NCBI RefSeq assembly: GCF_963921235.1
Contig: NC_086108.1
Span: 20,150,001 to 20,214,000 of the forward strand
Direction of reading: 5' to 3'
DNA from: Mobula hypostoma
Lineage: Eukaryota
Length of the DNA stretch: 64,000 nucleotides
Below, piece by piece: positions 8,033-55,500 of the stretch (position 1 is its first letter; every line of letters starts with the position of its first letter). The notes beneath the pieces were generated by a model. It ran no database searches, had not been told where the DNA came from, and was given only the letters and a program-made list of their open reading frames with translations. Both the position numbers and the translations under genes were made by a program.

Positions 8033-10830
8033 CATAGAAACATAGAAAATAGGTGCAGGAGTAGGCCATTCGGCACTTCGAGCCTGCACCATCATTTATT
8101 ATGATCATGGCTGATCATCCAACTCAGAACCCTGCACCAGCCTTCCCTCCATACCCCCTGATCCCTGTAGCCACAAGGGCTATATCTAACTCCCTCTTAA
8201 ATATAGCCAATGAACTGGCCTCAACTGTTTCCTGTGGCAGAGAATTCCACAGATTCACCACTCTCTGTGTGAAGAAGTTTTTCCTAATCTTGGTCCTAAA
8301 AGGCTTCCCCTTTATCCTCAAACTGTGACCCCTCGTTCTGGACTTCCCCAACATCGGGAACAATCTTCCTGCATCTAGCCTGTCCAATCCCTTTAGGATT
8401 TTATACGTTTCAATCAGATCCCCCCTCAATCTTCTAAATTCCAACGAGTACAAGCCCAGTTCATCCAGTTTTTCTTCATATGAAAGTCCTACCATCCCAG
8501 GAATCAATCTAGTGAACCTTCTTTGTACTCCCTCTATGGCAAGGATGTCTTTCCTCAGATTAGGGGACCAAAACTGCACACAATACTCCAGGTGTGGTCT
8601 CACCAAGGCCTTGTACAACTGCAGTAGTACCTCCCTGCTCCTGTACTCGAATCCTCTCGCTATAAATGCCAGCATACCATTTGCCTTTTTCACCGCCTGC
8701 TGTACCTGCATGCCCACTTTCAATGACTGGTGTATAATGATACCCAGGTCTCGTTGCACCTCCCCTTTTCCTAATCGGCCACTATTCAGATAATAATCTG
8801 TTTTCCTATTTTTGCCACCAAAGTGGATAACTTCACATTTATCCACATTAAATTGCATCTGCCATGAATTTGCCCACTCACCCAACCTATCCAAATCACT
8901 CTGCATCCTCTTAGCATCCTCCTCACAGCTAACACTGCCACCCAGCTTCGTGTCATCCGCAAACTTGGAGATGCTGCATTTAATTCCCTCATCCAAGTCA
9001 TTAATATATATTGTAAACAACTGGGGTCCCAGCACTGAGCCTTGCGGTACCCCACTAGTCACTGCCTGCCATTCTGAAAAGGTCCCGTTTATTCCCACTC
9101 TTTGCTTCCTGTCTGCTAACCAATTCTCTATCCACATCAATACCTTACCCCCAATACCGTGTGCTTTAGGTTTGCACACTAATCTCCTGTGTGAGACCTT
9201 GTCAAAAGCCTTTTGAAAATCCAAATATACCACATCCACTGGTTCTCCCCTATCCACTCTACTAGTTACATCCTCAAAAAATTCTATGAGATTCGTCAGA
9301 CATGATTTTCCTTTCACAAATCCATGCTGACTTTGTCCGATGATTTCACCGCTTTCCAAATGTGCTGTTATCACACCTTTGATAACTGACTCCAGCAGTT
9401 TCCCCACCACCGACGTTAGGCTAACCGGTCTATAATTCCCCGGTTTCTCTCTCCCTCCTTTTTTAAAAAGTGGGGTTACATTAGCCACCCTCCAATCCTC
9501 AGGAACTAGTCCAGAATCTAACGAGTTTTGAAAAATTATCACTAATGCATCCACTATTTCTTGGGCTACTTCCATAAGCACTCTGGGATGCAGACCATCT
9601 GGCCCTGGGGATTTATCTGGCTTCAATCCCTTCAATTTACCTAACACCACTTCCCTACTAACAAGTATTTCGCTCAGTTCCTCCATCTCACTGGACCCTC
9701 TGTCCCCTACTATTTCTGGAAGATTATTTATGTCCTCCTTAGTGAAGACAGAACCAAAGTAATTATTCAATTGGTCTGCCATGTCCTTGCTCCCCATAAT
9801 CAATTCATCTGTTTCTGTCTGTAGAGGACCTACATTTGTCTTTACCAGTCTTTTCCTTTTTACGTATCTATAAAAGCTTTTACAGTCAGTTTTTATGTTC
9901 CCTGCCAGTTTTCTCTCATAATTTTTTTCCCCTTCCTAATTAGGCCCTTTGTCCTCCTCTGCTGAACTCTGAATTTCTCCCAGTCCTCAGGTGAGCCACT
10001 TTCTCTGGCTAATTTGTATGCTTCTTCTTTGGAATTGATATTATCCCTAATTTCTCTTGTCAGCCACGGGTGCACTACCTTCATTGATTTATTCTTTTGC
10101 CAAACTGGGATGAACAATTGTTGTAGTTCATCCATGCAATCTTTAAATGCTTGCCATTGCATATCCACCGTCAATCCTTTAAGTGTCATTTGCCAGTCTA
10201 TCTTAGCTAATTCACGCCTCATACCTTCAAAGTTACCCCTCTTTAAGTTCAGAACCTTTGTTTCTGAATTAACTATGTCACTCTCCATCTTAATGAAGAA
10301 TTCCTCCATATTATGGTCACTCTTACCCAAGGGGCCTCTCACGACAAGATTGCTAATTAACCGTTCTTCATTGCTCAAAACCCAGTCCAGAATAGCCTGC
10401 TCTCTAGTTGGTTCCTCGACATGTTGGTTCAAAAAATCGTCCCGCATACATTCCAAGAAATCCTCTTCCTCAGCACCTTTACCAATTTGGTTCACCCAAT
10501 CTACATGTAGATTGAAGTCACCCATTATAACTGCTGTTCCTTTATTGCACACATTTCTAATTTCCTGTTTAATACCATCTCCAACCTCACTACTACTGTT
10601 AGGTGGCCTGTACACCACTCCCACCAGCGTTTTCTGCCCCTTAGTGTTATGCAGCTCTACCCATATCGATTCCACATCATCCCGGCTTATGTCCTTCCTT
10701 TCTATTGCATTAATCTCCTCTTTAACCAGCAACGCCACCCCACCTCCTTTCCTTTCATGTCTATCCCTCCTGAATATTGAATATCCCTGAACGTTGAGCT
10801 CCCATCCTTGGTCACCCTGGAGCCATGTCA
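8033..10830 (-). mobile_element. Young CR1 LINE subfamily B, 5'-truncated; ORF2 (APE endonuclease 9893-10831, RT 8124-9803) broken by one frameshift
   Basis: GDFN and SDH endonuclease motifs, [10 protein letters not shown] and FADD RT motifs, (TTTCTATG)n tail; near-identical to 32180-34967. Confidence 0.95.
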
Positions 10831-13331: not shown

Positions 13332-16300
13332 TAATGGAGGGGACGAACTGGAAATATAAGAATGGAGTTAAAGGGAAAGAGAGAATAAGAAAAGTTAAGA
13401 AAGACAACAGAATAAAAGGGCAGAAAGCTCAGGAAGGGATCGGAGAATATGGCCAAGTGCAATAGGAATCGATGTGAAAGGCGAGGGGAGTAAAAGTATT
13501 ACTTTAAAAGGATTAAAAGTATTATACATGAATGCACGGAAATAAAGTGGATGAACTTGAGGCTCAGTTGGAAATTGGCAAGTAGGATGTTGTGGGAATA
13601 ACAGAGACATGGCTACAAGAGGACCAGGGCTGGGAAATGAATATTCAGGGATATACATCCTATCGAAAGGACAGACAGGTTGGCAAAGGGGGTAGGGTGG
13701 CTGTATTGGTGAGGAATGAAATTCAGTCACTTGCGAAGGGAGACATAGAATCAGGAGGTGTAGTCAGTATGGATAGAACTGAGAAACTGTAAGGGCAGAA
13801 AGACCCTGATGGGAGTTATCTACAGGCCCCCAAACAGTAGCCTGGATATAGGGTGCAAGTTAAATCAAGAGTTAAAATTGGCATGTCGCAAAGGTAATTC
13901 TATGGTTGTTATGGGGGATTTCATTTTCATTTTAAAATCTTTTTTATTAATTATTATTGAAAATCAACAACAAAGAAAAATACATCAAAATAATCAAGAC
14001 AACATATGTAGAATAAAAATTAAACTATCAACCAAGTTAAACAGTATATCAATAATAATAATAAAAAAACAAAATGTTAAAGCTATTTCTTTGGAAAAAA
14101 GAAAGAAGGAAAAAAAGAACCCCCACTAACTAAAACAAAAAAAAAACCCTAATAACAAAAAAAGTAAAGAAAACCCATTTGGAGCACAAACCCGGAGCTA
14201 TACGCCATACAAGCTTCCATAATAAAAAAAACATCAATCTGCCAACCAAATCCATTTACCCAAGAATCAGAAGAGGACCATCTTAATTAACTCAAATCAA
14301 ATGATAGTAGCGGGCAAAAGAACCTCACCTTTTCTCAAAGTCAAATCGAGGATCAATAGTTCGACTTCTAATTTTTTCCAAACTAAGACATAACATCACC
14401 TGAGAGAACCATTGTATCAAAGTGGGAGCAGAAGCATCTTTCCATTTTAATAAAATAGCCCTTCTAGCCAATAATGTGACAAATGCAATTACGTGTTGGT
14501 TTGATATAGAATTACCGTGAACATATTGAGGAATTATACCAAACAAAAATGTCAATTTATTAGGTTGTAAATTGATTTTTAAAGCTTTAGAAATTGTAGA
14601 AAAAATAGATTTCCAAAACTGTTTCAATACAGAACACGACCAAAACATATGTGTCAAGGTAGCTATCTCAGTTTTACATCTATCACACTGACTATTAACA
14701 TTCGGAAATATTTTAGACAATCTCTCCTTTGTCAAGTAATAACGATGTACAATTTTATATTGAATTAGAGAACGACTGGCACAAATCGAAGAAGAGTTGA
14801 CCAACTTCAAAAATCGCAACCAATCCTCTGTTATCAAGGTCATGTTAAGCTCTCTTTCCCAATCTTGCTTAATCTTAAGTAAAGGATAGTTATCCTGTTG
14901 TAATAGTAGATTATAAATTTTCCCAATGAAACCTTTCACTAAGGGTTCATTTTTAAAATAATGTCTAACAGGTCAGAATCTTGTATATATGGAAAATTAC
15001 TTAAATATTCTTGTAAGAAATGTCTGACCTGAAGATATTGCAAAAAATTTGAATATGAGAGAGAATATTTAGTTACTAACTTCTCAAAGGACATCAATCG
15101 GCCTTCTTGAAACAAATCCGTAAAGGAAAAAAATTCCTTTATTCCTCCAAAGAGAAGAGGTAGGATCACTAAGTGAAGGTTTAAATAAATAATTTCGATA
15201 AATTAAACTAAAAAGGTTAAATTTTTTAAGATTAAAAAACTTATGAAACTGGTACCAGATTCGCAATGACTGCTTGATCATAGGATTTATATTTAGAATA
15301 GAAATTTTGGCTAGTTGTACAGGTAAAGGACCTCCTAATAACAAAGTTAAATAAAATGAACAATCCATGGTGGTCGTTCATTTTTATCGGTCCAATATAA
15401 CCAAGAACACGCATAACGTATATTAACCGCCCAATAATACATTCTTAAATTAGGCAAAGTAAGACCTCCATCCTTTTAAAATTTTTATAAATGACATTTT
15501 CCAATTCTTGGTCTTTTATTATTCCAAACAAAAGATGAAATAATAGAGTCAACCTGATCAAAAAACTTCTTAGTTAGAAAAATAGGAATATTTTGAAATA
15601 CATATAAAAATTTTGGTAAAATCATCATTTTAACTGCATGAATTTGACCGGCTAATGAAAGTGTAAGTGGATTCCATCTAGAAAATAATTGCTTCATAAA
15701 ATCCACTAAGGGAACTGAATTAGCTCTATAAAGGTCTCCATAATTTTTAGTGATGATAATACCTAAATATTTAGAAGAATCCGTAACTTTAAAAGGAATG
15801 TCATCGTATATAGAAGCAGAATTATTTAAAGGAAATAATTCATTTTTATGCAGGTTTAATTTATATCCTGAAAACAATCCAAATTCATTTAATAATTTCA
15901 ATAAACTAGGAATAGATTCTTCAGATTTCAAAACATTAACAAAGAGATCATCTGCATAAAGGGAAATCTTATGAATAGTCCCATTTATAGAAATTCCTCG
16001 AATATCTCTAGCTTCACGAAGTGCAATAGGTTCCAACATCAAATTAAATAACAAAGGGCTTAACGGATATCCTTGTCTCGTACCCCGCGAAAGTCGAAAA
16101 AAGGGGGATCTGCAGTTATTAGTAGTAACAGTAGCAATAGGGCTTTTATATATCAATCTAATTCATTTATTAAAATTAGTACCAAAGCTAAATTTCTCTA
16201 AAACGTTAAATAGATATTTTCATTCAACTCTTATCAAATGCCTTTTCAGCATCTAGAGAAACAACACATTGGGGAGTCTTCGAGAGGGATGAGTATATAA

Positions 16301-19300
16301 CATTTAACAGTCTCCGAGTGTTAGAAAAGGAATAACAGCCTTTTATAAAACCTGTTTGATCCTGAGAAATAATTTTAGCTAGTATATTCTCCAACTGATT
16401 AGCCATTATTTTTGAAAGAATTTTAGCATCCACATTTAATAATGAAATAGGCCTATATGAAGCACAATCAGTAGGGTCTTTATCTATCTTAAGAATTAAA
16501 GAAATAGAAGCTTCATAAAATGTGGAAGGTAACTCTTCTAACAGAAAAGAATCTTTAAGCATTTCCAACATATAAAGAGTAAGCAAATCTTCAAATATTT
16601 TATAAAATCCTACAGTAAAACCATCCAGACCAGGAGCTTTACCAGATTGTATTGAAAGAATAGCTTTCTGAATTTCTCTTTCAGTAAAAGGAGCTTCAAG
16701 AATTTGCTGATCTTCAACAGATATTCCAGGAAAATCAATCTTTTGTAAAAAGGCATACATATTAGAAGGGTCAGCTGGAAACTAAGATTTATAGAGCTCA
16801 CTGTAATAGTCTTGAAGAATTTTATTAATATCTTCATAATTACAAGTTAAACTACCATCTCCCTTATGAATTTTAAAAATTTGTCTTTTAGCTCTAACTG
16901 CCTTAAGTTGAGATGCTAATAGCTTGTTACTTTTATCTCCAAACACATAAAATTGACTTTTTAATTTAAGCAAATTTCTTTCAATAGGGTAAGTTAATAG
17001 TAAATTATATTGTGATTGACGTTCAACCCTTTGTTTAAATAAATCAACATTAGGAGAAACTGCATAAGTGTTATCTAGGTCTTTAATTTGTTTTGAAATT
17101 CTATCCAACTCTATTTTTGTCTGTTTCTTGAGCTTAGCCAAATAGGAGATTATCTGATCTCGCAAATAAGCTTTAAGTATATCCCATATAATCAATTTCA
17201 AGACATCTTCCGTATTATTAAAAAGAAAGAAATCTTTTATCTGGATCTCTATAAATTTGACAACGTCCGAACTTTGTAATAAATTTTCTGGAAAACGCCA
17301 AGGCAAGTTTGCATTACTAACATCATTTAACTCAAAAGTTAGGCTTAAAGGTGCACGATCTGAAACAGCAATAGCATCATATTCACATTTCTGGACTTTG
17401 GACAAAAATCAGAAATCAGCTATAAAATAATCAATTCTTGAATATTTTTTATGGACATATGAATAAAAAGAATAATCTCTATCATTAGGATGTAAATTTC
17501 TCCAGATTTCTATCAAACCATAATCAATTAAAAAGGAATTAATGTGTTGCTGAACAACTCGGAAGCTGCTGATTGGTTGAACTATTGGCTGATTGTCAAT
17601 CAAAGGGTTTAAACAACAGTTGAAGTCACCTCCCATCAGCAGCATATATTCATTTAAGTCTGGTAATAAACCAAATACATTTTTTTAAAAAGGATAATTT
17701 ACATTAGGTCTGTATAGATTAACCAGGACAATTTTTCTATTACAAATTGTTCCTTTAATAATTAAAAATCTACCATTATTATCTGAGATGATGTCTTCTT
17801 GAATAAATAAAATATTAGATTTAATAAAAATAGATACTCCCTTTATTTTATTTAGACAAGTAGCATGATATTGAAGGCCCTTCCACATTTTGAAAAATCT
17901 ATTTTGATCACCCGTTCTGATATGCGTTTCTTGAACAAAAATTATGTGGGGCTGGAATGGATTAATAATTTTAAAAGTCTTCCTTCGCTTAATAGGGTGG
18001 TTCCAGCGAAGTACGTTCCAACTAATAATGCCAATCTGTTTAAGTACCATTGAATATTGTTTTTAAACACGAAAATACACGCGTACCATCACGGGCTAAT
18101 CAAAGATGGCGGTGATGAGTATAACCAAATAGAAAACACGCATGCTCTGGAGCTCCATAATGGGGAAAAATACAGGAAACGTGTGAAAAAAATTGAAAAA
18201 TAAAATCCCACGATAAACCCCAAAATGCAAAAATACTCCCAAACCTCCCACCATTCCCAAAGATAGGAATCTGGCAAAGGAGAAAAAAAGCTGGAACACA
18301 TCCTCAAGAAGAAAAGCAAAAAAGACTGAACTCCGCATGCCACTCAATTTAAATAGTGATTTAAAAGTTTTTACTCTCAATTCCCCCCTCCCCTTACAAA
18401 GAAAATACATAACGTTAAGATAAGAAAGCCCAACAGAGAAGAAAAAAATGTTTATACTTAATCATTTAAAATAAACTAGGGAATGCAAAAACAGTCTCCA
18501 AAAGCATCAAAGCAATGCTATTAAGCCTAAACAATATAATCTCTAATAAGAGAAAAACAGTGCCATTATTCTTTAGCTTACTACCTTATTTAACAAAAGA
18601 ACTGAAGCTAATTATCTATTACTAAATACTCCATAATATAGGAAAAAGTCTATATAAACTATAAGCAAACTATCACTTAATTAATAAAGAAAAAGGAAGA
18701 TAGAAACAGATAACCAAACCAGTTAACAATCTGTCCACTGTATTAATTCACTCTGTATACTAAACAGACTTCAAAAAAAAATCACTCTTTAGTCAAGCAA
18801 AGAAGTTCACCTCTTCTTTAAATAATCCATCAATCAAAGGATACCTTCAGCATACAGAAATCTTCAAAGTCTGTTTTCTTTCAGAAAATTACTCAGCAAC
18901 TCTAATATCCTTCATACATCAGCCGATTCCACAATAGAATAAAATTGACTACAATTGGCCGAGCTTTATCTGACGAAGTGAAAATTTTGTGAGCTCTTTC
19001 AATATCAGGAGGCTGAGATAGAATATCTGGAAAAAGAGATTGAAACAAATTGGCAAAATAGTCCAATACATTCCCACTCTCAGAGCCTTCCTTGAGACCA
19101 ACAATTCAAATATTATTTCGATGAGACTTCGCCTCTAAATCGACAATTTTGCGTTGAGCCTGTTCCAAGCGGGTTGAAATATCCACAATCTGACATTTCG
19201 ATTCTTTAAACTCGGTATTCAAGGTAACAATATTTTCCTCAATAGTCTGTAAACTCTGTTGGAACGACTTCAACTCAGAAGTGTTATTGTCTATTTTGTT

Positions 19301-30675: not shown

Positions 30676-33600
30676 CCATAAGACCATAAGACAAAGTAGC
30701 AGAAGTAGGCCATTCGGCCCATCGAGTCTGCTCCGCCATTTTATCATGAGCTGACCCATTTTATCCTATTTAGTCCCACTGCCCCGCCTTCTCACCATAA
30801 CCTTTGATGCCCTGGCTACTCAGATACCTATCAATCTCTGCCTTAAATACACCCAATGACTTGGCCTCCACTGCTGCCCGTGGCAACAAATTCCATACAT
30901 TCACCACCCTCTGACTAAAAAAATTTCTTCGCATTTCTGTTCTGAAGGGGGCGCCCTTCAATCCTGAAGTCATGCCCTCTCGTACTAGACTCCCCCATCA
31001 TGGGAAACAACTTTGCCACATCCACTCTGTCCATGCCCTTTAACATTCGAAATGTTTCTATGAGGTCTCCCCTCATTCTTCTAAACTCCAAGGAATACAG
31101 TCCAAGAGCAGACAAACGTTCCTCATATGTTAACCCTCTCATTCCCGGAATCATTCTAGTGAATCTTCTCTGTACCCTCTCCAACGTCAGTACATCCTTT
31201 CTTAAATAAGGAGACCAAAACTGCCCACAGTACTCCAAGTGAGGTCTCACTAGCGCCTTATAGAGCCTCAACATCACGTCCCTGCTCCGGCACAAAGTCT
31301 GGCCCTGTAGCTCAGAAGGATAGGGCAAGGAAGAGGAGGGCAGTTGTGATAGGGAACTCGATAGTAAGGGGGTCAGATAGGCGATTCTGTGGACGCAGTC
31401 CAGAGACCCGGATGGTAGTTTGCCTCCCTGGTGCCAGGGTCCGGGAAATTTCTGAGCATGTCCAAGTTATCCTGAAGTGGGAGGGTGAGGAGCCAGAGGT
31501 CATGGTACATATAGGTACCAATGACATAGGTAGGAAAAGGGATGAGGTCCTGAAAGGAGAATATAGGGAGCTAGGAAGGGAGTTGAGAAAAAGGACCGCA
31601 AAGGTAGTAATCTCGGGATTACTGCCTGTGCCACGCGACAGTGAGAGTAGGAATGCGATGAGGTGGAGGATAAATGCGTGGCTGAGGGATTGGAGCAGGG
31701 GGGCAGGGATTCAAGTTTTTGGATCATTGGGACCTCTTTTGGCGCAGGCGTGACCTGTACAAAAAGGACGGGTTACACTTGAATCCTAGGGGGACCAATA
31801 TCCTGGCAGGGAGATTAGCGAGGGCTACTGAGGTGACTTTAAACTAGAATGGTTGGGGGGTGGGAATCAAATTAAAGAGGCTAGGCGTGAGGAGGTTAGT
31901 TCACAACAGGGGGATGAGAACCAGTGCAGAGAGACAGATGGGTGTAAAGTGAGAGTAGAAGCAAAAAGTACTAAGGAGAAGAGTAAAAGTGGAAGGCTGA
32001 CAAATCCAGGGCAAGCATTAAAAAGGGCCACTTTTCAACATAATTGTATAAGGGCTAAGAGAGTTGTAAAAGAGTGCCTGAAGGCTTTGTGTGTCAATGC
32101 AAGGAGCATTCGTAATAAGGTGGATGAATTGAAAGTGCAGATTGTTAATAATGATTATGATATAGTTGGGATCACAGAGACATGGCTCCAGGGTGACCAA
32201 GGATGGGAGCTCAACGTTCAGGGATATTCAATATTCAGGAGGGATAGACATGAAGGAAGGGGAGTGGGGTGGCGTTGCTGGTTAAAGAAGAGATTAACGC
32301 AATAGAAAGGAAGGACATAAGCCGGGAAGATGTGGAATCGATATGGGTAGAGCTGCGTAACGCTAAGGGGCAGAAGACGCTGGTGGGAGTTGTGTACAGG
32401 CCACCTAACTGTAGTAGTGAGATGGTATTAAACAGGAAATTAGAAATGTGTGCAATAAAGGAACAGCAGTTATAATGGGTGACTTCAATCTACATGTAGA
32501 TTGGGTGAACCAAATTGGTAAAGGTGCTGAGGAAGAGGATTTCTTGGAATATATGAGGGATGGTTTTTTGAACCAACATGTCGAGGAACCAACTAGAGAG
32601 CAGGCTATTCTGGCCTGGGTTTTGAGCAATGAAGAAGGGTTAATTAGCAATCTTGCCGTGAGAGGCCCCTTGGGTAAGAGTGACCATAATATGGTGGAAT
32701 TCTTCATTAAGATGGAGAGTGACATAGTTAATTCAGAAACAAAGGTTCTGAACTTAAAGAGGGGTAACTTTGAAGGTATGAGACGTGAATTAGCTAAGAT
32801 AGACTGGCAAATGACACTTAAAGGATTGACGGTGGATATGCAATGGCAAGCATTTAAAGGTTGCATGGATGAACTACAACAATTGTTCATCCCAGTTTGG
32901 CAAAAGAATAAATCAAGGAAGGTAGTGCACCCGTGGCTGACAAGAGAAATTAGGGATAGTATCAATTCCAAAGAAGAAGCATACAAATTAGCCAGAGAAA
33001 GTGGCTCACCTGAGGACTGGGAGAAATTCAGAGTTCAGCAGAGGAGGACAAAGGGCTTAATTAGGAAGGGGAAAAAAGATTATGAGAGAAAACTGGTAGG
33101 GAACATAAAAACTGACTGTAAAAGCTTTTATAGATATGTAAAAAGGAAAAGACTGGTAAAGACAAATGTAGGTCCCCTGCAGACAGAAACAGGTGAATTG
33201 ATTATGGGGAGCAAGGACATGGCAGACCAATTGAATAATTACTTTGGTTCTGTCTTCACTAAGGAGGACATAAATAATCTTCCAGAAATAGTAGGGGACA
33301 GAGGGTCCAGTGAGATGGAGGAACTGAGCGAAATACTTGTTAGTAGGGAAGTGGTGTTAGGTAAATTGAAGGGATTGAAGGCAGATAAATCCCCAGGGCC
33401 AGATGGTCTGCATCCTAGACCGCTTAAGGAAGTAGCCCAAGAAATAGTGGATGCATTAGTGATAATTTTTCAAAACTCGTTAGATTCTGGACTAGTTCCT
33501 GAGGATTGGAGGGTGGCTAATGTAACCCCACTTTTTAAAAAAGGAGGGAGAGAGAAACCAGGGAACTATAGACCGGTTAGCCTAACGTCGGTGGTGGGGA

Positions 33601-36600
33601 AACTGCTGGAGTCAGTTATCAAAGATGTGACAACAGCACATTTGGAAAGCGGTGAGATCATCGGACAAAGTCAGCATGGATTTGTGAAAGGAAAGTCATG
33701 TCTGACGAATCTCATAGAATTTTTTGAGGATGTAACTAGTAGAGTGGATAGGGGAGAACCAGTGGATGTGGTATATTTGGATTTTCAAAAGGCTTTTGAC
33801 AAGGTCCCACACAGGAGATTAGTGTGCAAACTTAAAGCACACGGTATTGGGGGTAAGGTATTGATGTGGATGGAGAATTGGTTAGCAGACAGGAAGCAAA
33901 GAGTGGGAATAAACGGGACCTTTTCAGAATGGCAGGCGGTGACTAGTGGGGTACCGCAAGGCTCAGTGCTGGGACCCCAGTTGTTTACAATATATATTAA
34001 TGACTTGGATGAGGGAATTAAATGCAGCATCTCCAAGTTTGCGGATGACACGAAGCTGGGTGGCAGTGTTAGCTGTGAGGAGGATGCTAAGAGGATGCAG
34101 AGTGACTTGGATAGGTTGGGTGAGTGGGCAAATTCATGGCAGATGCAATTTAATGTGGATAAATGTGAAGTTATCCACTTTGGTGGCAAAAATAGGAAAA
34201 CAGATTATTATCTGAATGGTGGCCGATTCGGAAAAGGGGAGGTGCAACGAGACCGGGGTGTCATTATACACCAGTCATTGAAAGTGGGCATGCAGGTACA
34301 GCAGGCGGTGAAAAAGGCAAATGGTATGCTGGCATTCATAGCGAGAGGATTCGAGTACAGGAGCAGGGAGGTACTACTGCAGTTGTACAAGGCCTTGGTG
34401 AGACCACACCTGGAGTATTGTGTGCAGTTTTGGTCCCCTAATCTGAGGAAAGACATCCTTGCCATATAGGGAGTACAACGAAGGTTCACCAGATTGATTC
34501 CTGGGATGCCAGGACTTTCATATGAAGAAAGACTGGATGAACTGGGCTTGTACTCGTTGGAATTTAGAAGATTGAGGGGGGATCTGATTGAAACGTATAA
34601 AATCCTAAAGGGATTGGACAGGCTGGATGCAGGAAGATTGTTCCCGATGTTGGGGAAGTCCAGAACAAGGGGTCACAGTTTGAGGATAAAGGGGAAGCCT
34701 TTTAGGACCGAGATTAGGAAAAACTTCTTCACACAGAGAGTGGTGAATCTGTGGAATTCTCTGCCACAGGAAACAGTTGAGGCCAATTCATTGGCTATAT
34801 TTAAGAGGGAGTTAGATATGGCCCTTGTGGCTACGGGGATCAGGGGGTATGGAGGGAAGGCTGGGGTGGGGTTCTGAGTTGGATGATCAGCCATGATCAT
34901 AATAAATGGCGGTGCAGGCTCGAAGGGCCGAATGGCCTACTCCTGCACCTATTTTCTATGTTTCTATACTCTATTCCTCTAGAAATGAATGCCAACATTG
35001 CATTCGCCTTCTTCACTACCGATTCAACCTGGAGGTTAACTTTAAGGGAATCCTGTACGAGGACTCCCAAGTCCCGTTGCATCTCAGAACTTTGAATTCT
35101 TTCCCCATTTAAATAATAGTCTGCCCGTTTATTTTTTCTGCCAAAGTGCATAACCATACACTTTCCAACATTGTACTTCATTTGCCACTTCTCTGCCCAT
35201 TCTTCCAATCTATCCAAGTCTCTCTGCAGACTTTCCGTTTCCTCAGCACTACCAGCCCCTCCACCTATCTTCGTATCATCAGCAAACTTAGCCACAAAGC
35301 CATCTATTCCATATTCCAAATAGTTGATGTACAATGTAAAAAGAAGCAGTCCCAACACGGACCCCTGTGGAACACCACTGGTAACCGGCTGCCAACCAGA
35401 ATAGGATCCCTTTATTCCCACTCTCTGTTTCCTGCCAATCAGCCAACGCTCTATCCACGTATGTAACTTTCAAGTAATTCCATGGGCTCTTATCTTGTTA
35501 AGCAGCCTCATGTATGGCACCTTGTCAAAGGCCTTCTGAAAATCCAAATATACGACATCCACTGCATCTCCCTTGTCTAGCCTACTGGTAATTTCCTCAA
35601 AAAATTGTAATAGGTTTGTCAGGCAGGATTTTCCTTTAAGGAATCCATGCTGAGTTCTGCCTATCTTGTCATATGCCTCCAGGTACTCTGTAACCTCATC
35701 CTTGACAATCGACTCCAACAACTTCCCAACCACCGACGTCAAGCTATCAGGTCTATAATTTCCTTTTTGCTTCCTTGCCCCCTTCTTAAATAGCGGAGTG
35801 ACATTTGCAATCTTCCAGTCTTCCGGAACCATGCCAGAATCTATCAACTTTTGAAAGATCATCGCTAATGCCTCCGCAATCTCCACAGCTACTTCCTTCA
35901 GAACACGAGGGTGCATTCCATCTGGTCCGGGAGATTTATCGACCTTTAGCCTATTCAGCTTCCTGAGTACTTTCTCTGTCGTAATTGTGACTGCGCATAC
36001 TTCTCTTCCCTGCCACCCTTGAGTGACCGGTATCCTGCTATCTTCCTCAGTGAAGACTGATGCAAAATACTTGTTCAGTTCCTCTGCCATCTCCTCATCC
36101 CCCATTACAATTTCTCCAGTATCATTCTCTATCGGTCCTATATCTACTCTCACCTGTCCTTTACTCTTTATATAATTGAAAAAGCTTTTAGTATCCTCTT
36201 CGATATTATTTGCTAGTTTCCTTTCATAGTTAATCTTTTCTCTCTTAATGACCTTTTTGGTTTCCTTTTGTAAGCTTTTAAAGACTTCCCAATCCTCTGT
36301 CTTCCCACTAATTTTTGCTTCCTTGTATGCCCTCTCCTTAGCTTTAACTTTGGCTTTGACTTCTCTTGTCAACCACGGTTGCATCCTTTTTCCACTCGAA
36401 AATTTCTTCTTTTTTGGAATATACCTGTCTTGCACATTCCTCATTTCTCGCATAAACTCCAGCCACTGCTGCTCTGCCGTCTTTCCCGCCAGTGTCTCTT
36501 TCCAGTCAACTTTGGCCAGTTCCTCTCTCATGCCACTGTAGTTTCCTTTACTCCACTGAAACACCGACACATCAGATTTCGGCTTCTCTTTCTCTAATTT

Positions 36601-38110
36601 CACAGTGAACTCAATCATGTTATGATCACTGCCTCCTAAGGGTTCCTTCACCTCACTCTCTCCAATCACCTCCGGTTCATTACACAATACCCAATCCAGT
36701 ACAGCCGATCCCCTAGTGGGCTCAACAACAAGCTGTTCTAAAAAGCCATCTCGCAGACATTCTACAAATTCTCTCTGAGATCCAGTGCCGACCTGATTTT
36801 TCCAATCTACTCACATGTTAAAATCCCCCACAATTATCATAACACTGCCCTTCTGACAAGCCTTTTCTATTTCCAGTTGTAATTTGTAGTCCACATCCCT
36901 GCAGCTGTTTGGAGGCCTATAAATAACTGCCATCAGGGTCCTTTTACCCCTGCTATTCCTTAGCTCAACCCATAAAGATTCTGCAGCTTCCGATCCTATA
37001 TCACCTCTTTCTAATGATTTAATATCATTTCTTACCAATAAAGCCACGCCTCCCCCTCTGCCTACCTTCCTATCCTTCTGATACACCATGTATCCTTGGA
37101 CGTTCAGCTCCCAGAGACATGCATCCTTTAGCCAGGTCTCAGTGATGGCCACAATATCATACCTGCCAATCTGTAGCTGTACGACAAGATCATCCACTTT
37201 ATTTCTTATGCTGCGTGCATTTAAGTACAACACCTTAAGACCAGTATTTGATACTTTTTGCTTTGATTTCACTGCAACTCATCCCAATGGCTACACATTT
37301 GCCCCATCACCTGCCTGTCTTTCCTGACATCTTTACTGCTCACTATCTTAGATTTATTTCTGTTTTCCCCTTCCTCCGCTCTATCATTCCGGTTCCCATC
37401 CCCCTGCCAAATTAGTTTAAACCCTCCCTAACAGTTCTATTAAACTTTCCCGCCAGGATATTGGTCCCCTTCGGGTTCAGGTGTAACCCTTCCCCCAGAA
37501 GAGATCCCAATTATCCAAGAATCTGAAGCCCTGCCCCCTACACCAGTCTCTCAGCCAGGCATTCATCTGCCTGATCCGACTACTCTTGCCCTCGCTAGCA
37601 CGTGGTACAGGTAGCAATCCCGAGATTACTACCCTGGAGGTCCTGCTTCTTAGCTTTCTTCCTAACTCCTGGAAAACTCTCTTCAGGACCTCCTCCTTTG
37701 TCCTATCTATGTCATTGGTACCAACATGTACCAAGACAACTGGCTGCTCACTCTCCTCCTTTAGAATATTCAGGACCTGATCCAAGACATCCCGTACCTT
37801 GGCACCTGGGAGGCAACACACCATGCGGGTATCTCTGTCAGGCTCACAGAATCTCCTGTCTGTTCCCCTGGCTATGGAATCCCCCACAACTACCGCATTT
37901 CTCTTCACCCTCCTTCTCTCCTGCACAACAGCGCCAGGCTCAGTGCCAGAGACCCGGTCACCGTGGGCGTCCCCCGTCAGGTCATCCCCCTCAACAGCAT
38001 CCAGAACAAGATATTTGTTGCTGAGTGGGACAGCCACAGGGGTGCACTCCACTATCCGGGCATTTCCCTTCCCTCTCTTGACAGTGACCCAGTGTTCTGA
38101 CCCCTGTAGC
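30676..38110 (-). mobile_element. CR1 subfamily C (30676-31288 + 34968-38110), with esterase ORF1 part and ORF2, split by CR1-B
   Basis: CCATAAGA tail. The junction CTGCTCC|TATACTCTATTCC is contiguous in the copy at ~63135-63155. Motifs VGDSIARG and LYLNARSI. Confidence 0.9.
31289..34967 (+). mobile_element. Young CR1 subfamily B with ORF1 esterase half and near-complete ORF2 (few lesions)
   Basis: ORFs 31346-31753, 31853-32305, 32448-34469 (673 aa) and 34494-34877; (TTTCTATG)n tail. Confidence 0.95.
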
Positions 38111-38474
38111 CTTGGACATGATCTGAAACATCCCAGACCCCAGCACCTGGGAGGCAAACTACCATCCGAGTTTCTTTCCTGCGTCCACAGAATCACCTGA
38201 CCCCCCTAACTATAGAGTCCCCTATCACTATTGCTTTCCTCTTCCTTTCCCTACCCTTCTGAGCCACAGGGCCAGAATCTGTGCCAGAGGCACAGACACT
38301 GTTGCTTCAGGTCTTAGGTAGGCTGTCTCCCCCAACAGTACTTAAACAGGAATACTTATTGTCAAGGGGTACAGCCACAGGGGTACTCTCTAGTACCTGA
38401 CTCTTCCCCTTCCCTCTCCTGACTGTTACCCACTTATCTGTCTCCCGTGGCCCCGGTGTGACCAACTGCCTATA

Positions 38475-39020
38475 GAGGTGTATGGGGTGTCAGGGAGGGG
38501 TAGCAACTCTGGTGGAGGAACATGTCACGTCCTTTTCAAGGTGGTTAGTCCACCTTTGGTCCCCACCTGGCACTCGGCTCTCACCTGTGGCTCCTCGTAG
38601 CTGTTTGCATGCGACAGCAGCCACACCCCGGGTAATGGCTTCGACAAGCCAGCTAAACCAGGTGAGGGTAGCCGATGGGTCTCAAACCCTCGGTGAGATA
38701 GGGAGTTGTCTATCCCAGCATGTGAAGCCAGACTCCGGCGGATTGAGCGGACGAGACCAATGGAAGGTCCAACGGTCAAGAAGGCAGTCTCTGCAAACAT
38801 TGTGGAACGTGTAGAGCCCGACAAGACACAGAAGACATCCTGGTCATCCACTGCGCCTCGTCCCATCTCCAGCTGTCTCGACTCTATCTTGCCACTGGAT
38901 CCAGATGGGAATTGGGAAAAGAGAATGAGGCTCTCCCTCACTTAAATCCAAATCATGCGCTAGTCTCAACACCATCAATGGTGTCGAGGTCTTCATCGAC
39001 GACGACGATGGACGAACATG
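38475..39020 (+). mobile_element. ~546-bp non-coding RTE-like non-autonomous retroelement inserted in CR1-D2 ORF1
   Basis: The host CR1 reads CTGCCTATA|ACTCCTTTC across it (ATA repeated at both junctions). 5' HDV-like fold; 3' hairpins CTCAACACC/GGTGTCGAG and TTCATCG/CGATGGA. Confidence 0.75.
38484..38675 (+). ncRNA. HDV-like self-cleaving ribozyme (predicted; cleavage 5' of G38484, catalytic C38653)
   Basis: P1 GGGGTGT(38484-90)/ACACCCC(38623-29); P2 TCGGCT-CTCACCTG(38574-87)/CAGGTGAG..AGCCGA(38659-75); P3 GGC/GCC; L3 TCCTCG; P1.1 CC/GG(38630-31); P4 TGGCTT/AAGCCA; J4/2 GCTAA. Confidence 0.8.
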
Positions 39021-39399
39021 ATAACTCCTTTCTATCACCTCCTCGCTCTCCCTGACCAGACGAAGGTCATTGAGCTGCAACTCCAGTTCCCTACCGCGGT
39101 CCCTTAGGAGCTGCAGCTCGACACACCGGGTGCAGATATGGCCATCCGGCAGGCTGGGAGACTCCAGGACCTCCCACATCTGACACCGAGCACAGAACAC
39201 CAGTTTCACACACATACTTCCTTTCCGCAATTGACACAGGTAACCTACCTAGCCTTATTACCGCATAAGCCCGCTGAGCCAAAGCCCTATCACTCTGCCA
39301 CCTCTTATTCCGCTACCTGCTACAAACGCTGCCTGCTGGATATGGCGGTCTTCTTTTTAAACATTTCCCGCTCTACTGGCTGATGTCATGCGCCTAGCC

Positions 39400-49593: not shown

Positions 49594-52500
49594 ATGCTTT
49601 CCAAGAAAAGTTGACATCAAAGTTCGGATATTCAACGATAACTGGAAAGATAATTTTTTCTTCTGTGGGGTCAACGGCAAACCTGCGTGGCTGATGTGCT
49701 CGCAACAAGTGGCTGTGGGGACTCCGCCTTCCGCCTGTGGACATGTAAGACACAGTGTCTTTCTGTCTGCCTTTAATTTCTCCCTTTCCCAACTTAAACT
49801 TTGAAATTTTAACTTTATTCAGTCGGGTCTTTCAAAGTGATAATTATAACTATGGCTACCTTGAGAAGCACTAAAAAAAAATCCTGATACAGTAATGGTA
49901 AATCTAAAAAAACTGACAAAGCTTCTGAAGAGCCAGCCTGGGTTAAGAGAATAGAGACTCAAATGAGCTCTATCGTCGCTGAATTAACTCAACTAGAAGA
50001 AAGCCTTCTTCCTTTGGAGGAAAAAATTGATTCTTTGAGCTTGGATCTTAAAGAAGTAACTCGTAATGTGGCTGATATTTCTTCTCGATTGGAAAAAGCA
50101 CAACGTCGAATTGTTGATTTGGAAGCTCGTTCTCGTCAGAATAATATTCGAATTGTGGGATTGAATGAAAAATCAGAATCTGCCGACATACTGGACTATT
50201 TCGCTTAAAAGTTTCAATCTCTATTCCTGAGGCATTTTCACATTGAAGTAGCCCATAGAGTTGGAACTCCGAGACAAGGTAAAAACAGGCATGTTATTGT
50301 GTGTTTCCTTCGTATTCGAGACAAAGACCGTATTATTAAACTGGCAAGAAAATAAAGACTGTTTAAATTTCAAGGCTCTGAGATTCGTTTCTTTCAAGAT
50401 TTTCCACGTGAGGTTGTTCAGAAATGTTCTGGATTCACGACCGCAATGTGAATGACCTTTCAAAAACAGATGTATCCCTTTCTTCTTTACCCAGCTAAAT
50501 TAAGGCTTTTCGCTAAAGATTCTGGGGTTCGTTATCTTTGAGGATCCAGCCAATGCATTGCGTTTTATTAATTCTCTCCCGGATGAGTCTGAAGCCTGAA
50601 GTTTAAAAGACTTACAATTATTCAAACATTTTGCGATATAAGGAATGATGAGATCGGAAGAATTGAGAAGTACAGAAAGTCTTGGTATTAAAAAGTACCT
50701 TTATCTTTGAAATAGACTGATTTGGACGGTTTTAACTTTAGAAGATATTTTATGGGATCTACTGGAAGACTGTAGAAATTTTAAACCATTTAGAATTTCT
50801 TTCTGTCTGCTACATATATGAATTAATTGTTTCTTTTTGCTTTGTATGTTTTTGTTAAGATCTTTTAACTACTATTCGGGTTTTTTTTTATGTTTTATAG
50901 ATAGATGTAATAATTTACAGATGGTGATATTTTCTCTTCTGTGTAAATATTTCAAGAATTTGTTTTGGAAGTGTTTTTTTCTTATCTAATGTTATGAAGG
51001 TTACTTTCTAAATTGAAGGCCGTTTCTGTTAACTATTTTTTCTAATTTAATTGTAATGGGTTGTATGTCGACTGTAACGAGTTGTATACTCGGGAGAGGG
51101 AGACAGATTACCTTTTTTTATTTGTATCTTTTATTTCGGCAGGTGGAGTTCAGAATTGCTTCTATGCATTTCTTGGGGCTTGCATCGATTAATATCGACT
51201 TATTTCTGGGCTTTGTAGGTTGGGTGGGTTTTTTCCTTTTTTTAATTTCTATTTTTTTATTCCCATTATGGAATTCTGGAGTGTACGCAAATTGTTATCA
51301 TTGTTGCTTATCACTGCCATTCAAAATTTCCTTATCCTGACATGTGTTTAATTGTTTTCTTAGATATAAAGTTTCATGATGTTAGTTAAACAGTTAAATG
51401 TTTTAAGTTGGAATGTCCTTGGTTGGAATCATCCTATTAAGCATAAGAAAACATTTAAAATTATTAATTGATTCCAACCTGATATAACCTTTGCACAAGA
51501 GACACATGTCGGGTTATGTGATAACAATCGATTTTTTAAATTTTGGAAGGGTCCTCAGATTCACGCAAACTCTCAAAGTAAAATGAGGGGCGTTTCCATT
51601 TTTATTGATTCTAATATTCCCTTTAATCAGGAGGATATTATATCTGATATTAATGGTAGATTTTTGATTGTTAAAGGAACAATTTACAATAAGAAAATGG
51701 TTTTGGTTAATATATATGGACCAAATACTGATGATCCTTCATTTTTTAAAGATATTTTTGCTCTATTACCTGATTTAAATGAATATGTGTTATTAATGGG
51801 TGGACATTTTAATACTTGCTTAAATCCCTTGTTAGATAAATCATCATCTGGACATCAACTCCCTAATTGTTCTGCATCACTTATTAATTCCTTTTTAATT
51901 GATTCTGGTTTAACTGAAGTCTGGAGACATACGCATCCTACTGATAGAGAATATTCCTTTTTTTCACATGTTCATAATAAATATTCGAGAATTGACTATT
52001 TTATTGCCGACCCGACTTTTACTTAATGTTCAGAAATGTGAATATGATGCAATTGTTATTTCTGATCATGCTCCTTTAAATTTAATATTTGATTTGAAAG
52101 ATGTTGTTTCTACAAGACCACCCTGGCGTTTTCCAGAACATTTGTTACAACGTTCAGATTTTGTTGAGTTTATTGAAACTCAGATAAAAGAGTTTTTTCT
52201 CTTTAATAATACAGGAAACGTCTCAAAGTTAGTAATTTGGGATACGTTAAAAGCTTATTTGCATGGTCAGATTATTTCTTATTTAGCTAAGTTGAAGAAA
52301 CAGACAAGAATAGAATTAGATAAAATTGCTAAACAAATTAAAGAATTAAATAACATCAATGCAATCTTTCCAAATGTTGATTTGTTTAAAAGAAGAGTGG
52401 AATTACAATCACAATATAATTTATTATTAACTCATCCTACTGAAGGATATTTGCTTAAATTAAAAAGTCAATTTTATATTTTTGGGGACAAAAATAATAG

Positions 52501-55500
52501 GCTATTAGCTTCCCAATTAAGGGCTGCTAAAGCGAAAAGAGAAATTTTAAAGATTCGTAAAGATAATGGAGATATAGTAAGTAATTATGAAGATATTAAT
52601 ATTTTTCAGGATTTTTACTCCGATCTTTATAAATCTCAGTTTCCAGCAGATCCCTCTAAAATGAAAGCTTTTTTATATAAGTTTAAATTTCCTCAAATTA
52701 CTGCTGAAGATTAACAGACCCTTGATGCTCCAATTGTTGAGCATGAAATTCAGAAAGCTATATGGTCAATGCAGTCAGGTAAAGCTCCTGGACTCGATGG
52801 TTATTCGGTAGCATTTTACAAAAAAATTTGAAAAATTACTTTCTCCATGCCTTTTGGAAATATTTCATGAATCTTTTGAGAAAGGTAATTTACCCTCTTC
52901 TTTTTATGAAGCTTCTGTTTCTTTAATCCTTAAGAAAGATAAAGATCCTACTGAACGCTCATCTTATAGACCTATTTCACTATTAAATGTGGATGCTAAA
53001 GTTCTTTATAAGATAATGGCTAACCGTTTGGAAAACATTTTATCTAAAATTATCTCTATGGATCAAACAGGCTTTATTAGAGGCCGTTACTCTTTTTCTA
53101 ATGTTCGGAGATTGATGAACATTATATATTCACCACTATCCAAAACACCCCAATGTGTTATTTCTCTGGATGCAGAAAAGGCATTTGATAAAGTTGAATG
53201 GACTTATTTGGTTAATGCATTAGAGAAATTTGGCTTTAGTAATAATTTTAATAAATGGATTCAAATGATCTATAAGAACCCTATCGCTACCATTATTATT
53301 AATAATCTTAGGTCTCCCTTTTTCACTTTCACGAGGTACGTGACAAGGGTGTCCATTAAGTCCTTTATTATTTAATCTCGCATTGGAGCATTCTCCCAAT
53401 TCGCGAAGCTAAAAACATTTATGGTATTTCTATAAATGGGACCATACATAAGATTTCTCTTTATGCAGATGATCTTTTGGTTTCTATCTTGAATCCTTAA
53501 GAATCTATTCCTAATCTTTTGGAATTATTAAATGATTTTGGAAAATTTTCAGGATATAAACTTAATTTAAGTAAAAGTGAATTGTTCCCTTTAAATGTTC
53601 CTGTTTTTATATTAAGGATATCCCATTTAGAATTGTGAATTCTTTTAAATATTTGGGTATTATCATTACAAAAAAAATAAGGATCTTCATAAAGCTAATG
53701 TAGTTCCTTTATTGGACTAAACAATTATTTTCTAGATGGAATCCTCTTACACTTTATTTAATAGGTCGTATTCATGCCCTGTAAATGATGATTTTACCTA
53801 GATTTTTATATAGTTTTCAAAATATACCTATCTTTCTAACCAAAAAATTTCCTGATCAAATTGATTCTGCTATTTCATCCTTCATTTGGAATAATAAAAA
53901 ACCAAGAGTTAATAAGTTTCATTTAGAAAAATCTAAAAAAGATGGTGGACTCGCGTTACCTAATTTAAGATTGTATTATTGGGCTGTTAATATTCGTCAA
54001 TTATGTTTTTGGTTATATTGACTCGATAAGAACCAAAAATCAGCTTGGATTGATTTGGAATTTAAAGCTATTAATCAATTTTATTTAACTTCACTATTGG
54101 GAGCGCCATTACCTTTACAACTTGTTAAAATTTCCAATTTAAATTTCTACCTGTTATTAAACAGTCCTTACGGATTTGGTTCCAGTTTCGCAACTCTTTT
54201 AATTTTAAACAATTTAAATTGTCTACTCCTGTATTTTGAAATTTGCTATTCAAACCTTCAATTACTGATCCCATCTTTCTCTTATGGAGAAGTAAGGGGA
54301 TTTGTTCTTTTACAGATTTATTTAGTGATGGTTAATTGATGTCTTTTGAAGAGTTAATTAGCAAATATTCTCTCTCTCATACACATTTCTTGAAATATTT
54401 ACAGGTTAGACATTTTTTACAAAAATATACTTCTATGTTTCCACATATGCAAGAATCTGATTTGTTGGACACTATTTTGAATATGAATCCCTTAGTGAAA
54501 TTGGTAGAATTTATAATTTATTTTACTACAAAAAGATAACCTCTCCACTAAAGATTAAACAAGATTGGGAGAGAGAACTTAATATGACTTTTGTTAATGA
54601 AGATTGGTTGCGAGTTCTGAAAATGGTTAATTCTTCTTCGATATGTGCCAATCATTGTTTAATTCAGTTTAAAATTGTTCACCATTATTACTTAACAAAG
54701 GAGAGGCTATCCAAAATATTTCCTAATATAGATAATCGTTGTGACAGGTGCAAAAATGAAGTAGCTACTTTGCCACATATGTTCTGGTCATGTCCCTCAT
54801 TGAAATCTTTATTTTCTACAATTTAGAAAAGCTTTGAAAATTAATTTACGACCTAATACATTGACTGTTCTATTTGGAATGGTTCTGCATCATATTCAGG
54901 GTATTTCATTTTCAAACCAACATGTAATTGCATTGTTGGCAAGAAGAGCTATTTTATTGAAGTGGAAAGATACCTCTGCTCCTACACTAATTCAATGGTT
55001 TTCCCAAGTAATGTTATGTCTTAGTTTGGAAAAAATTAGAAGTAGAACTTTTGATCCCCGATTTGATTTTGAGAGAAGGTGGGGCTCTTTTGCTAAATAT
55101 TATCATTTAATTTGAATTAATTTACATGGTTTCCTTCCAATTTTATGTTATATAAATGTGATTTGGCAATTGTTTTCTTTTTCTTCTTTTATATATATAA
55201 ATGATTGCAAGACGTATTGCTCCGGGAGTTGGTTCCTAATGTTTTTTTTCTCTTTTTTTTGTTTTGTAGTTAGTGGGTTTTTTTTAGTTAGTTGGGGTTC
55301 TCTTTTTTCCTTCTTTTTCTTTTACAAAAAATTTTTTTTTTCATTCGCATATATGTTTTTTTTTCAGGTTTATTAATTATATATATACTAATTTGCTGAA
55401 CTTCTGTATTTTATAGCTGTAGAAGATTATATATCAATAAAAAGATTTAAAAATGAAATGAACAAGTGGCTGTGGGAAAAGAGTACAATATCAAACGACA

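Follow-up and report, generated by a model that had tools for sequence, protein, structure and literature searches.

A probable bipartite RTE derivative with a predicted HDV-like ribozyme and a candidate 5′ UTR–3′ end helix, inserted in a CR1 element of Mobula hypostoma

The insertion and its copies

The window, i.e., the whole stretch of 64,000 nucleotides of Mobula hypostoma DNA analysed here, holds an element of 546 bp (38475–39020) with the letters ATA on each side, inserted in a degenerate CR1-type LINE (Table 1). The minus-strand ORF1 frame of this CR1 is continuous across the site once the insert is removed, and the GDSL/esterase domain of the host lies in the downstream part of ORF1. 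Empty sites are present in all four of the public sequencing runs that we analysed: contigs of other CR1 copies (10, 11, 14, and 3 contigs) jump over 38472–39020 with an overlap of three letters. The flanking letters, the read-through frame, and the empty-site contigs bear out the insertion of 546 bp into CR1 ORF1 that the first-pass annotation had read from the window. The target duplication is only 3 bp long, which is short for an RTE insertion; the duplications printed for hagfish RTE elements are much longer. At 39015–39023 the tail of the element is almost gone, and two additional letters stand before the 3-bp duplication. It is possible, though speculative, that small deletions at these positions trimmed a duplication that was once longer.

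The same annotation had described the element as lacking both tRNA boxes and a recognisable protein ORF, and our searches agree on both counts. ARAGORN finds no tRNA gene in the element, neither strand has an exact B box, and no A–B pair separated by 25–70 nt occurs on them even if one mismatch is allowed. For the promoter-less character that the annotation had put forward as possible, these searches cover Pol III boxes. Rfam finds no rRNA within the 64-kb window. The two open frames, 110 aa and 113 aa long, resemble chance frames; the first has four database matches, all nameless and without a Pfam family. An RTE ORF profile run against the six frames gives a best score of -5.2 bits, equalled by 154 of 300 shuffles. 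We dropped a weak minus-strand tblastn similarity to RTE ORFs because of this result.

Table 1. Features of the element and its surroundings (positions in the window).
Feature	Position	Strand	Evidence or remark
Host: decayed CR1-type LINE ORF1, esterase-bearing, split by the oppositely oriented element	37477..39250	-	
Left 3-bp target duplication	38472..38474	+	Flanking letters; empty-site joints with 3-letter overlap
Right 3-bp target duplication	39021..39023	+	Flanking letters; empty-site joints
RTE 5′ UTR-derived part, ~490 nt	38475..38965	+	Colinear with first ~507 nt of a full-length RTE 5′ UTR (global alignment)
Predicted P1, 5′ strand	38475..38481	+	Predicted cleavage directly before 38475
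Long J1/2 domain with P1.2-like stem (38485-38500 with 38561-38575)	38484..38577	+	Two double-sided changes versus L001
Predicted HDV-like core	38578..38668	+	Descriptor; pairing with L001
Predicted P2	38578-87 with 38659-68	+	
Predicted P3	38589-91 with 38620-22	+	
Predicted L3	38592-38619	+	
Predicted P1.1	38593-94 with 38630-31	+	
Additional hairpin within L3	38600..38618	+	Retained in L001 with one one-sided change
Predicted P1, 3′ strand	38623-29	+	
Predicted P4	38636-51	+	
Predicted J4/2	38652-58	+	Putative catalytic C at 38653
Conserved RTE 5′ UTR domain	38831..38965	+	Also in WALLSI1, MAR4_MD, RTE-11_PSi, RTE-2_CPB, and RTE-3_AMi (PMC5786205 supplement)
Junction helix	38963..38990	+	5′ arm from 5′ UTR, 3′ arm from LINE 3′ end; predicted fold
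RTE 3′ end: 3′ arm of junction helix, terminal hairpin, conserved end motif	38978..39018	+	3′ ends of L002, RTE-1_PSi, and RTE-3_AMi

The copy family was studied in public sequencing data. Among 23 runs listed (8 coded organisms), 20 hold part of the stretch. The four that were analysed, as contigs only, gave 16,828, 13,761, 12,889, and 885 contigs on a stretch of 780 nt that takes in the CR1 flanks. Evidence on loose ends comes from 24 of 2039 rows, and depth is not a copy number. At the 5′ end, contigs stop at 38477 and run into unrelated flanks (93 in run X1 and 83 in run X5 in the rows listed; agreement 0.41). At the other end, they stop at 39018, where a tail of the ACA type leads into unrelated flanks (220, 188, and 19 contigs in the rows listed; agreement 0.37–0.44). 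Within the element, 75 contigs of X1 and 71 of X5 among those listed break at 38977 and then carry the element's own 3′ letters. Hence, the shared loose ends at 38477, 38977, and 39018 indicate that both ends and the junction are common to a family, whose full per-copy structure is pieced together from contigs that each cover part of a copy (0 of those listed span a whole one). No loose end running on as 5′ UTR beyond the junction is found among the 24 of 2039 rows listed. A multicopy element with an identical internal junction is what the first-pass annotation had expected, and a single-copy sequence is at odds with the many insertions with shared ends in these runs. In a self-comparison of the 64-kb window, the element has no further copy (best E 0.10).

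In the bin 38979–39004, summed depth is down to 9%, 15%, and 3% of the median (X1, X5, and X12, respectively). We read this fall as alignment loss near the end of the element and at indels; it could also reflect many copies without this 3′ end. In organism F (run X12), the 5′ UTR part is at low depth and 38979–39004 is almost absent (ratio 0.03). This organism may have a relative with another 3′ end, or the autonomous form only. The copy in the window differs from the X1 majority at 24 places among those listed (40 of 191 are listed overall), 11 of the 24 being of CpG type, and has a 14-nt deletion after 38932, where a loose end is also found. It is probably dead or weak.

The element joins the two ends of an RTE LINE

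In make-up, the element joins the first ~490 nt of an RTE LINE to the last ~40 nt of such a LINE, and it has ends shared between copies, a tail of (ACA)n, and a duplicated target site. The first part was identified with a pattern made from the predicted ribozyme core (described below), which retrieved a single locus, L001, in a scan of metagenomes. L001 is a full-length RTE with a 5′ UTR of ~870 nt, a 1096-aa endonuclease–RT frame ending in a zinc-finger-like motif, and a short 3′ end. The element starts at the same place as this 5′ UTR and is 72% identical to it over 361 columns; a further ~370 nt of the UTR are missing from the element. The plus strand of the element has the same sense as the RTE ORF of L001. 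The second part was identified with L002, the single RTE locus given by a scan of prokaryote genomes. Its 3′ end, directly behind the ORF, matches the last 40 nt of the element, and none of 500 shuffles matches the whole 2952-nt locus as well. The match of these 40 nt to the 3′ end of L001 itself is weaker (16 of 500 shuffles as good), and they do not match the downstream 5′ UTR of L001 (406 of 500 shuffles as good). The (ACA)n that follows 39018 in the family is shortened in the window copy.

These alignments, to the 5′ UTR of L001 and the 3′ end of L002, uphold the earlier proposal of a bipartite deletion derivative of an RTE LINE. A contiguous piece of a longer element is incompatible with the absence of ~370 nt of the relative's UTR and with the RTE 3′ end found in their place. 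The proposal went too far in one respect. It held that the element keeps only signals for 5′ processing and for recognition by the RT at the 3′ end, whereas ~490 nt of 5′ UTR are kept, of which ~295 nt lie downstream of the ribozyme.

A related family provides a similar picture through two chance reading frames. P0121 and P0122 share 161 of 170 residues as far as the junction, after which P0122 resembles the downstream 5′ UTR of L001 and P0121 resembles the 3′ end of the element (0 of 300 shuffles in both cases). This indicates, as far as translated sequence goes, that P0122 and P0121 come from the full-length and the bipartite forms of one family. For another frame over a related 5′ UTR, P0131, and for an intact RTE ORF of 1076 aa, P0118, the longest contig has the same length, 159,243 bp. 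Going by this matching length, the two may share a contig, which would link this UTR to an intact ORF.

The conserved 5′ UTR domain is 87% identical to positions 370–519 of the turtle element RTE-11_PSi printed in PMC5786205 (118 of 136 columns against 38831–38965, counted by eye with the 14-nt deletion omitted). RTE-11_PSi and RTE-2_CPB are listed there as RTE LINEs, and the likeness is confined to the printed segments, which are without 3′ ends or the first 360 nt. We do not claim a horizontal transfer from this likeness to a turtle RTE, as RTE 5′ regions are very alike across distant animals, according to PMC5786205. Further searches for relatives found none in viral contigs (0 matches with two DNA patterns and 0 with two protein-based scans) and none in plasmids and phages, and five motifs of the element are absent from the AviRTE supplements.

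The two loci have features of their own. In L001, the final 21 nt of the RTE occur twice, 28 nt apart (L001:8959–9007), possibly as a result of re-priming in reverse transcription. The minus strand next to this RTE (L001:271–3535) has frames that resemble a tyrosine recombinase and an RT/RNase H of a DIRS/Ngaro-type retrotransposon. The contig of L001 looks eukaryotic despite the metagenome collection. L002 (2952 bp), in a contig of a bacterial metagenome-assembled genome, is probably a eukaryotic contamination.

The junction and a probable pairing between 5′ UTR and 3′ end

The first-pass annotation had seen two hairpins at the 3′ end. Both are present in the predicted fold, but the first is the junction helix, of which half comes from the 5′ UTR; it is thus not a purely 3′ structure. 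The deletion junction is in its loop, at ~38976–38979. The energy of this fold is unremarkable (z -1.1, with 27 of 200 shuffles as low), and for the last 81 nt the minus strand gives the better fold (z -2.4). Support for the 3′ hairpins therefore comes from the comparison with relatives and not from energy.

In L001, the homologous arms are far apart, in the 5′ UTR and at the 3′ end of a full-length element. Positions 5394–5417 pair with 8930–8950, 3.5 kb away, in 19 bp (-26.0 kcal/mol) and at the position of the junction helix. This strength is not equalled by any of 3887 other windows tried against the 3′ window (best -18.7), by any of 3395 tried against the 5′ window (best -22.0), or by any of 5000 shuffles; these 35-nt windows were anchored on motifs once the arms were known, in L001 as the sole full-length RTE computed. 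The arms of the element and those of L001 fail to pair across (-5.4 and -5.3). The L001 element has 37 inverted pairs at the settings used, one of which, I3, matches the same 5′ arm by chance within the ORF. The other RTE locus, L002, has no 5′ UTR and is uninformative on the helix.

The autonomous families printed in publications were compared by eye. Both segments are printed for seven of them, a set enriched for families with known derivatives and from whose count RTE-1_OAf and RTE1_Pca were excluded. The segments are complementary in 7 out of 7, with different letters in each: 9 bp in RTE-1_PSi, 10 bp in RTE-3_AMi, 10 bp in BovB, 9 bp in RTE-2_EBu, 9 bp (2 G-U) in RTE-4_EBu, 6 bp of low complexity in RTE-4_PPo, and 5+5 bp in RTE-11_AMi. 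The arms are therefore short or of low complexity in two of the seven. The derived elements BovA2, MAR1, MAR4_MD, WALLSI1, SINE-1_Pmo, SINE2-1_PXu, and SINE1-1_EBu have a hairpin closed at the junction (by eye). In MAR4_MD and RTE-2_MD, runs of A and T are matched on both arms, and BovA2 departs from BovB on both arms.

Arms that differ between families and yet remain complementary point to selection on pairing in the autonomous element. Judging from these sequences, RTE RNA probably closes a helix between its 5′ UTR and its 3′ end, and bipartite elements are this helix without its loop. We lean towards the helix being a functional requirement. In a full-length RTE, a segment of the 5′ UTR would pair just before the terminal hairpin, and the conserved domain of the 5′ UTR would thereby form a single RNA structure with the 3′ end. 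The family would have been born when the loop, made up of the remaining UTR and the ORF, was lost, most simply through a jump of the RT across the base of the helix, and its mobility would persist because both arms were retained.

The complementary arms might instead be inverted repeats that promote deletions, or a chance enrichment, with no role as an RNA helix. This is unlikely, though it carries some weight: the publications print these segments for their position next to junctions, which makes them a selected set, and L001 alone offers dozens of inverted pairs at the settings used. Neither point accounts well for letters that change from family to family while complementarity stays, for the matched A and T runs of MAR4_MD and RTE-2_MD, or for the changes on both arms between BovB and BovA2. 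Moreover, the choice of L001 did not depend on its having a derivative, and no window among ~3900 gives a better helix. We found no earlier report of a long-range RTE helix in the literature searched, which covered few subscription papers and no patents. A junction helix would give a concrete, RTE-specific reason why shortened forms recur at the same spot. It also bears on RTE-based templates for gene insertion, which carry their cargo between cognate 5′ and 3′ UTRs and were improved via screening (PMC13708176).

The predicted ribozyme, the proposed mobilisation, and related elements

The ribozyme fold first noticed at the 5′ end stands as the prediction of an HDV-like nested double pseudoknot. 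A descriptor search gave a single plus-strand solution, against zero on the minus strand and zero in 300 dinucleotide shuffles; the descriptor was composed after the fold had been seen and permits an L3 of up to 40 nt. When the element and L001 are compared over the whole 5′ structure, 83 of 84 cells are paired, with 4 double-sided changes, against 42–48% in slid controls; this pair count comes from two sequences and is reached by 31 of 500 shuffles. C38653, U38592, and G38597 are invariant between the two; we take them to be the catalytic C of J4/2 and the conserved U and G of L3, in HDV numbering. Folding energy is weak by itself (z -1.4 for 38475–38720, z -2.1 for the core), and Rfam gives nothing at the gathering score and otherwise only chance-level matches.

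Canonical HDV-like ribozymes have an L3 of ~7–8 nt. Here, L3 has 28 nt and includes an inserted hairpin. We ruled out a canonical L3 of 8 nt because the descriptor gave no short-loop solution. The modelled structure would work like an HDV-like ribozyme, with a membership of the class that is provisional in view of the 28-nt L3. No earlier report of an insertion in L3 of HDV-like ribozymes was found in the literature searched, which covered few subscription papers. If active, such an HDV-like ribozyme, with its hairpin in L3, would broaden the search descriptors for this class.

P1 can be drawn in two registers. The heptamer of its 5′ strand has a second copy at 38484–38490, which is the one used by the descriptor. 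The comparison favours the heptamer at 38475 over that at 38484: the family and L001 have G at its second position, the second copy sits in the J1/2 stem, and seven related frames (P0122–24 and P0128–31) start at the first heptamer behind differing flanks. At 38476 the window copy carries A instead of the family's G, which leaves one mismatch in P1. The consensus of the loose ends before 38477 ends in GG in both X1 and X5. In this model, the predicted cut coincides with the family's 5′ end, and RTE ribozymes are reported to cut at the 5′ end of the element (PMC3774820). The known HDV-like ribozymes of RTE, R2, and L1Tc elements (e.g., drz-Agam-2) have the same nested double pseudoknot of P1, P1.1, P2, P3, and P4, a structured J1/2 with P1.2, an extended P2, and a predicted cleavage at the first base of P1 (PMC4908430, PMC6765202, PMC3774820). 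A long structured J1/2 aids cleavage (PMC4908430). The element differs from those printed in these sources by the hairpin in its 28-nt L3 loop and by the duplicated P1 heptamer. The same runs also hold a sister family with a common ribozyme core, a different J1/2, other letters in L3, and a P4 of the L001 type (38551, 38595–38596, 38629); this P4 is seen in a loose end of X15.

A pseudoknot of the same origin might serve to bind a protein, to stabilise the RNA, or as a promoter element rather than as a ribozyme, the RNA being made from an internal Pol II promoter in the 5′ UTR. The non-canonical L3, the lack of a match in Rfam, and the two registers of P1 are all compatible with this, as are the ~295 nt of conserved UTR past the ribozyme, to which the ribozyme model assigns no role, and the treatment of bipartite LINEs as Pol II transcribed in PMC5786205. 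We nevertheless regard an inactive fold as quite unlikely: all HDV-like helices, P1.1, the U and G of L3, and the C of J4/2 are kept at 72% identity, the predicted cut falls on the family's 5′ end as in RTE ribozymes (PMC3774820), and a promoter and a ribozyme can coexist.

Binding of the RNA by the LINE protein and target-primed reverse transcription are established for LINEs. From the fold and its comparison, an HDV-like ribozyme would free the RNA of the element from a longer host or Pol II transcript by a cut at its first base. As in LINE biology at large, the protein of an autonomous RTE would bind this RNA in trans, and target-primed reverse transcription would begin at the nick through the (ACA)n tail. 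The recognised RNA is probably composite and would have three parts: the conserved domain of the 5′ UTR, the junction helix, and the terminal hairpin. A more general proposal is that RTE-clade RNAs have a conserved helix between 5′ UTR and 3′ end that closes a kb-scale loop, that the RT recognises the composite 5′ and 3′ domain, and that an HDV-like ribozyme with a hairpin in L3 is active. Taken as a whole it is tentative, and we remain slightly on the side of doubt. If composite recognition holds, it would explain why RTE bipartite parasites and SINE tails recur with their junction in the helix loop.

The element is very probably one decayed member of a multicopy family of bipartite, non-autonomous RTEs of the MAR4 type, released by its ribozyme and mobilised in trans by an RTE. 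It is an ordinary member of a described class; its interest comes from the helix and the L3 variant. Good descriptions exist of bipartite non-autonomous RTEs (PMC5786205, PMC7245038, PMC3747384) and also of ribozyme-bearing LINE derivatives, including R2 SIDEs (PMC3414825, PMC6765202). The closest systems are the marsupial MAR4_MD, RTESINE2, and WALLSI3, which join RTE 5′ and 3′ ends without a small-RNA head (PMC5786205, PMC3747384). Like them, the element has an RTE 5′ part, an RTE 3′ part followed by a microsatellite tail, no ORF or small-RNA head, and ends and a junction that are shared between copies. By eye, it also has the same place of junction and a similar terminal hairpin. MAR4_MD of the opossum is close in length (~550 bp, aligned by eye to position 552), and its position 346 corresponds to position 357 of the element, which puts the conserved 5′ UTR domain at an equal offset (by eye). 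The marsupial elements differ in host lineage, in sequence, and in the letters of the junction helix and terminal hairpin, the comparison with MAR4_MD being over 346–552 only.

The first-pass annotation had likened the element to R2 SIDEs, and this analogy gives way to the marsupial elements, given RTE-derived ends and a CR1 ORF1 as the insertion site. R2 SIDEs are also non-coding and dependent on an autonomous partner, and join a 5′ HDV-like ribozyme to a LINE 3′ end (PMC3414825). Unlike the element, they are limited to 28S rDNA, use the restriction-like R2 or R1 machinery, and are co-transcribed by Pol I (PMC3414825); the element is dispersed and RTE-derived, lies in CR1 ORF1, and ends in (ACA)n, so that these distinctive SIDE features are not found in it. 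SINEs with bipartite RTE tails (Bov-A, AfroSINE, Mar1, SINE1-1_EBu) also join a piece of 5′ UTR to the 3′ end, but most have a tRNA, 5S, or 7SL head and retain just a short, internal piece of 5′ UTR that lacks the ribozyme. The head and boxes of a Pol III SINE are not seen in the element.

A one-off or rare deleted LINE copy, or a contiguous fragment of 5′ UTR with the contigs coming from autonomous copies, would fit the depth drop at 38979–39004, the short target duplication, and the single copy in the 64-kb window. It is very unlikely in view of the 71–75 contigs per run that share the junction and the 188–220 that share the 3′ end among the rows listed, the deep coverage of the 5′ part, and the failure of the last 40 nt to match the downstream 5′ UTR of L001. 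The better minus-strand fold of the last 81 nt is in favour of a Pol III SINE of the classical type, headed by a small RNA, or of an element with minus-strand transcription. This reading has a negligible probability, given the absence of tRNA and A/B boxes, the agreement of the plus strand with the RTE ORF sense in L001, and the tail at the plus-strand 3′ end.

The window holds other LINE copies. Two tandem CR1 ORF1 segments next to the element (37773–38111 and 38114–38452) are 67–72% alike and 341 bp apart; probably, one CR1 sits inside another or has recombined with it. Two CR1 ORF2 copies in opposite orientations (32179–34967 and 8034–10829) are 97% identical, and the first has an open frame of 682 aa (32421–34469). 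The close identity and the length of this frame indicate that CR1 was recently active. Two AT-rich decayed LINE copies, at 14087–18050 (minus strand) and 51379–55331 (plus strand), are 75% identical, and their frames presumably correspond to an endonuclease and RT of the L1/Tx1 type.
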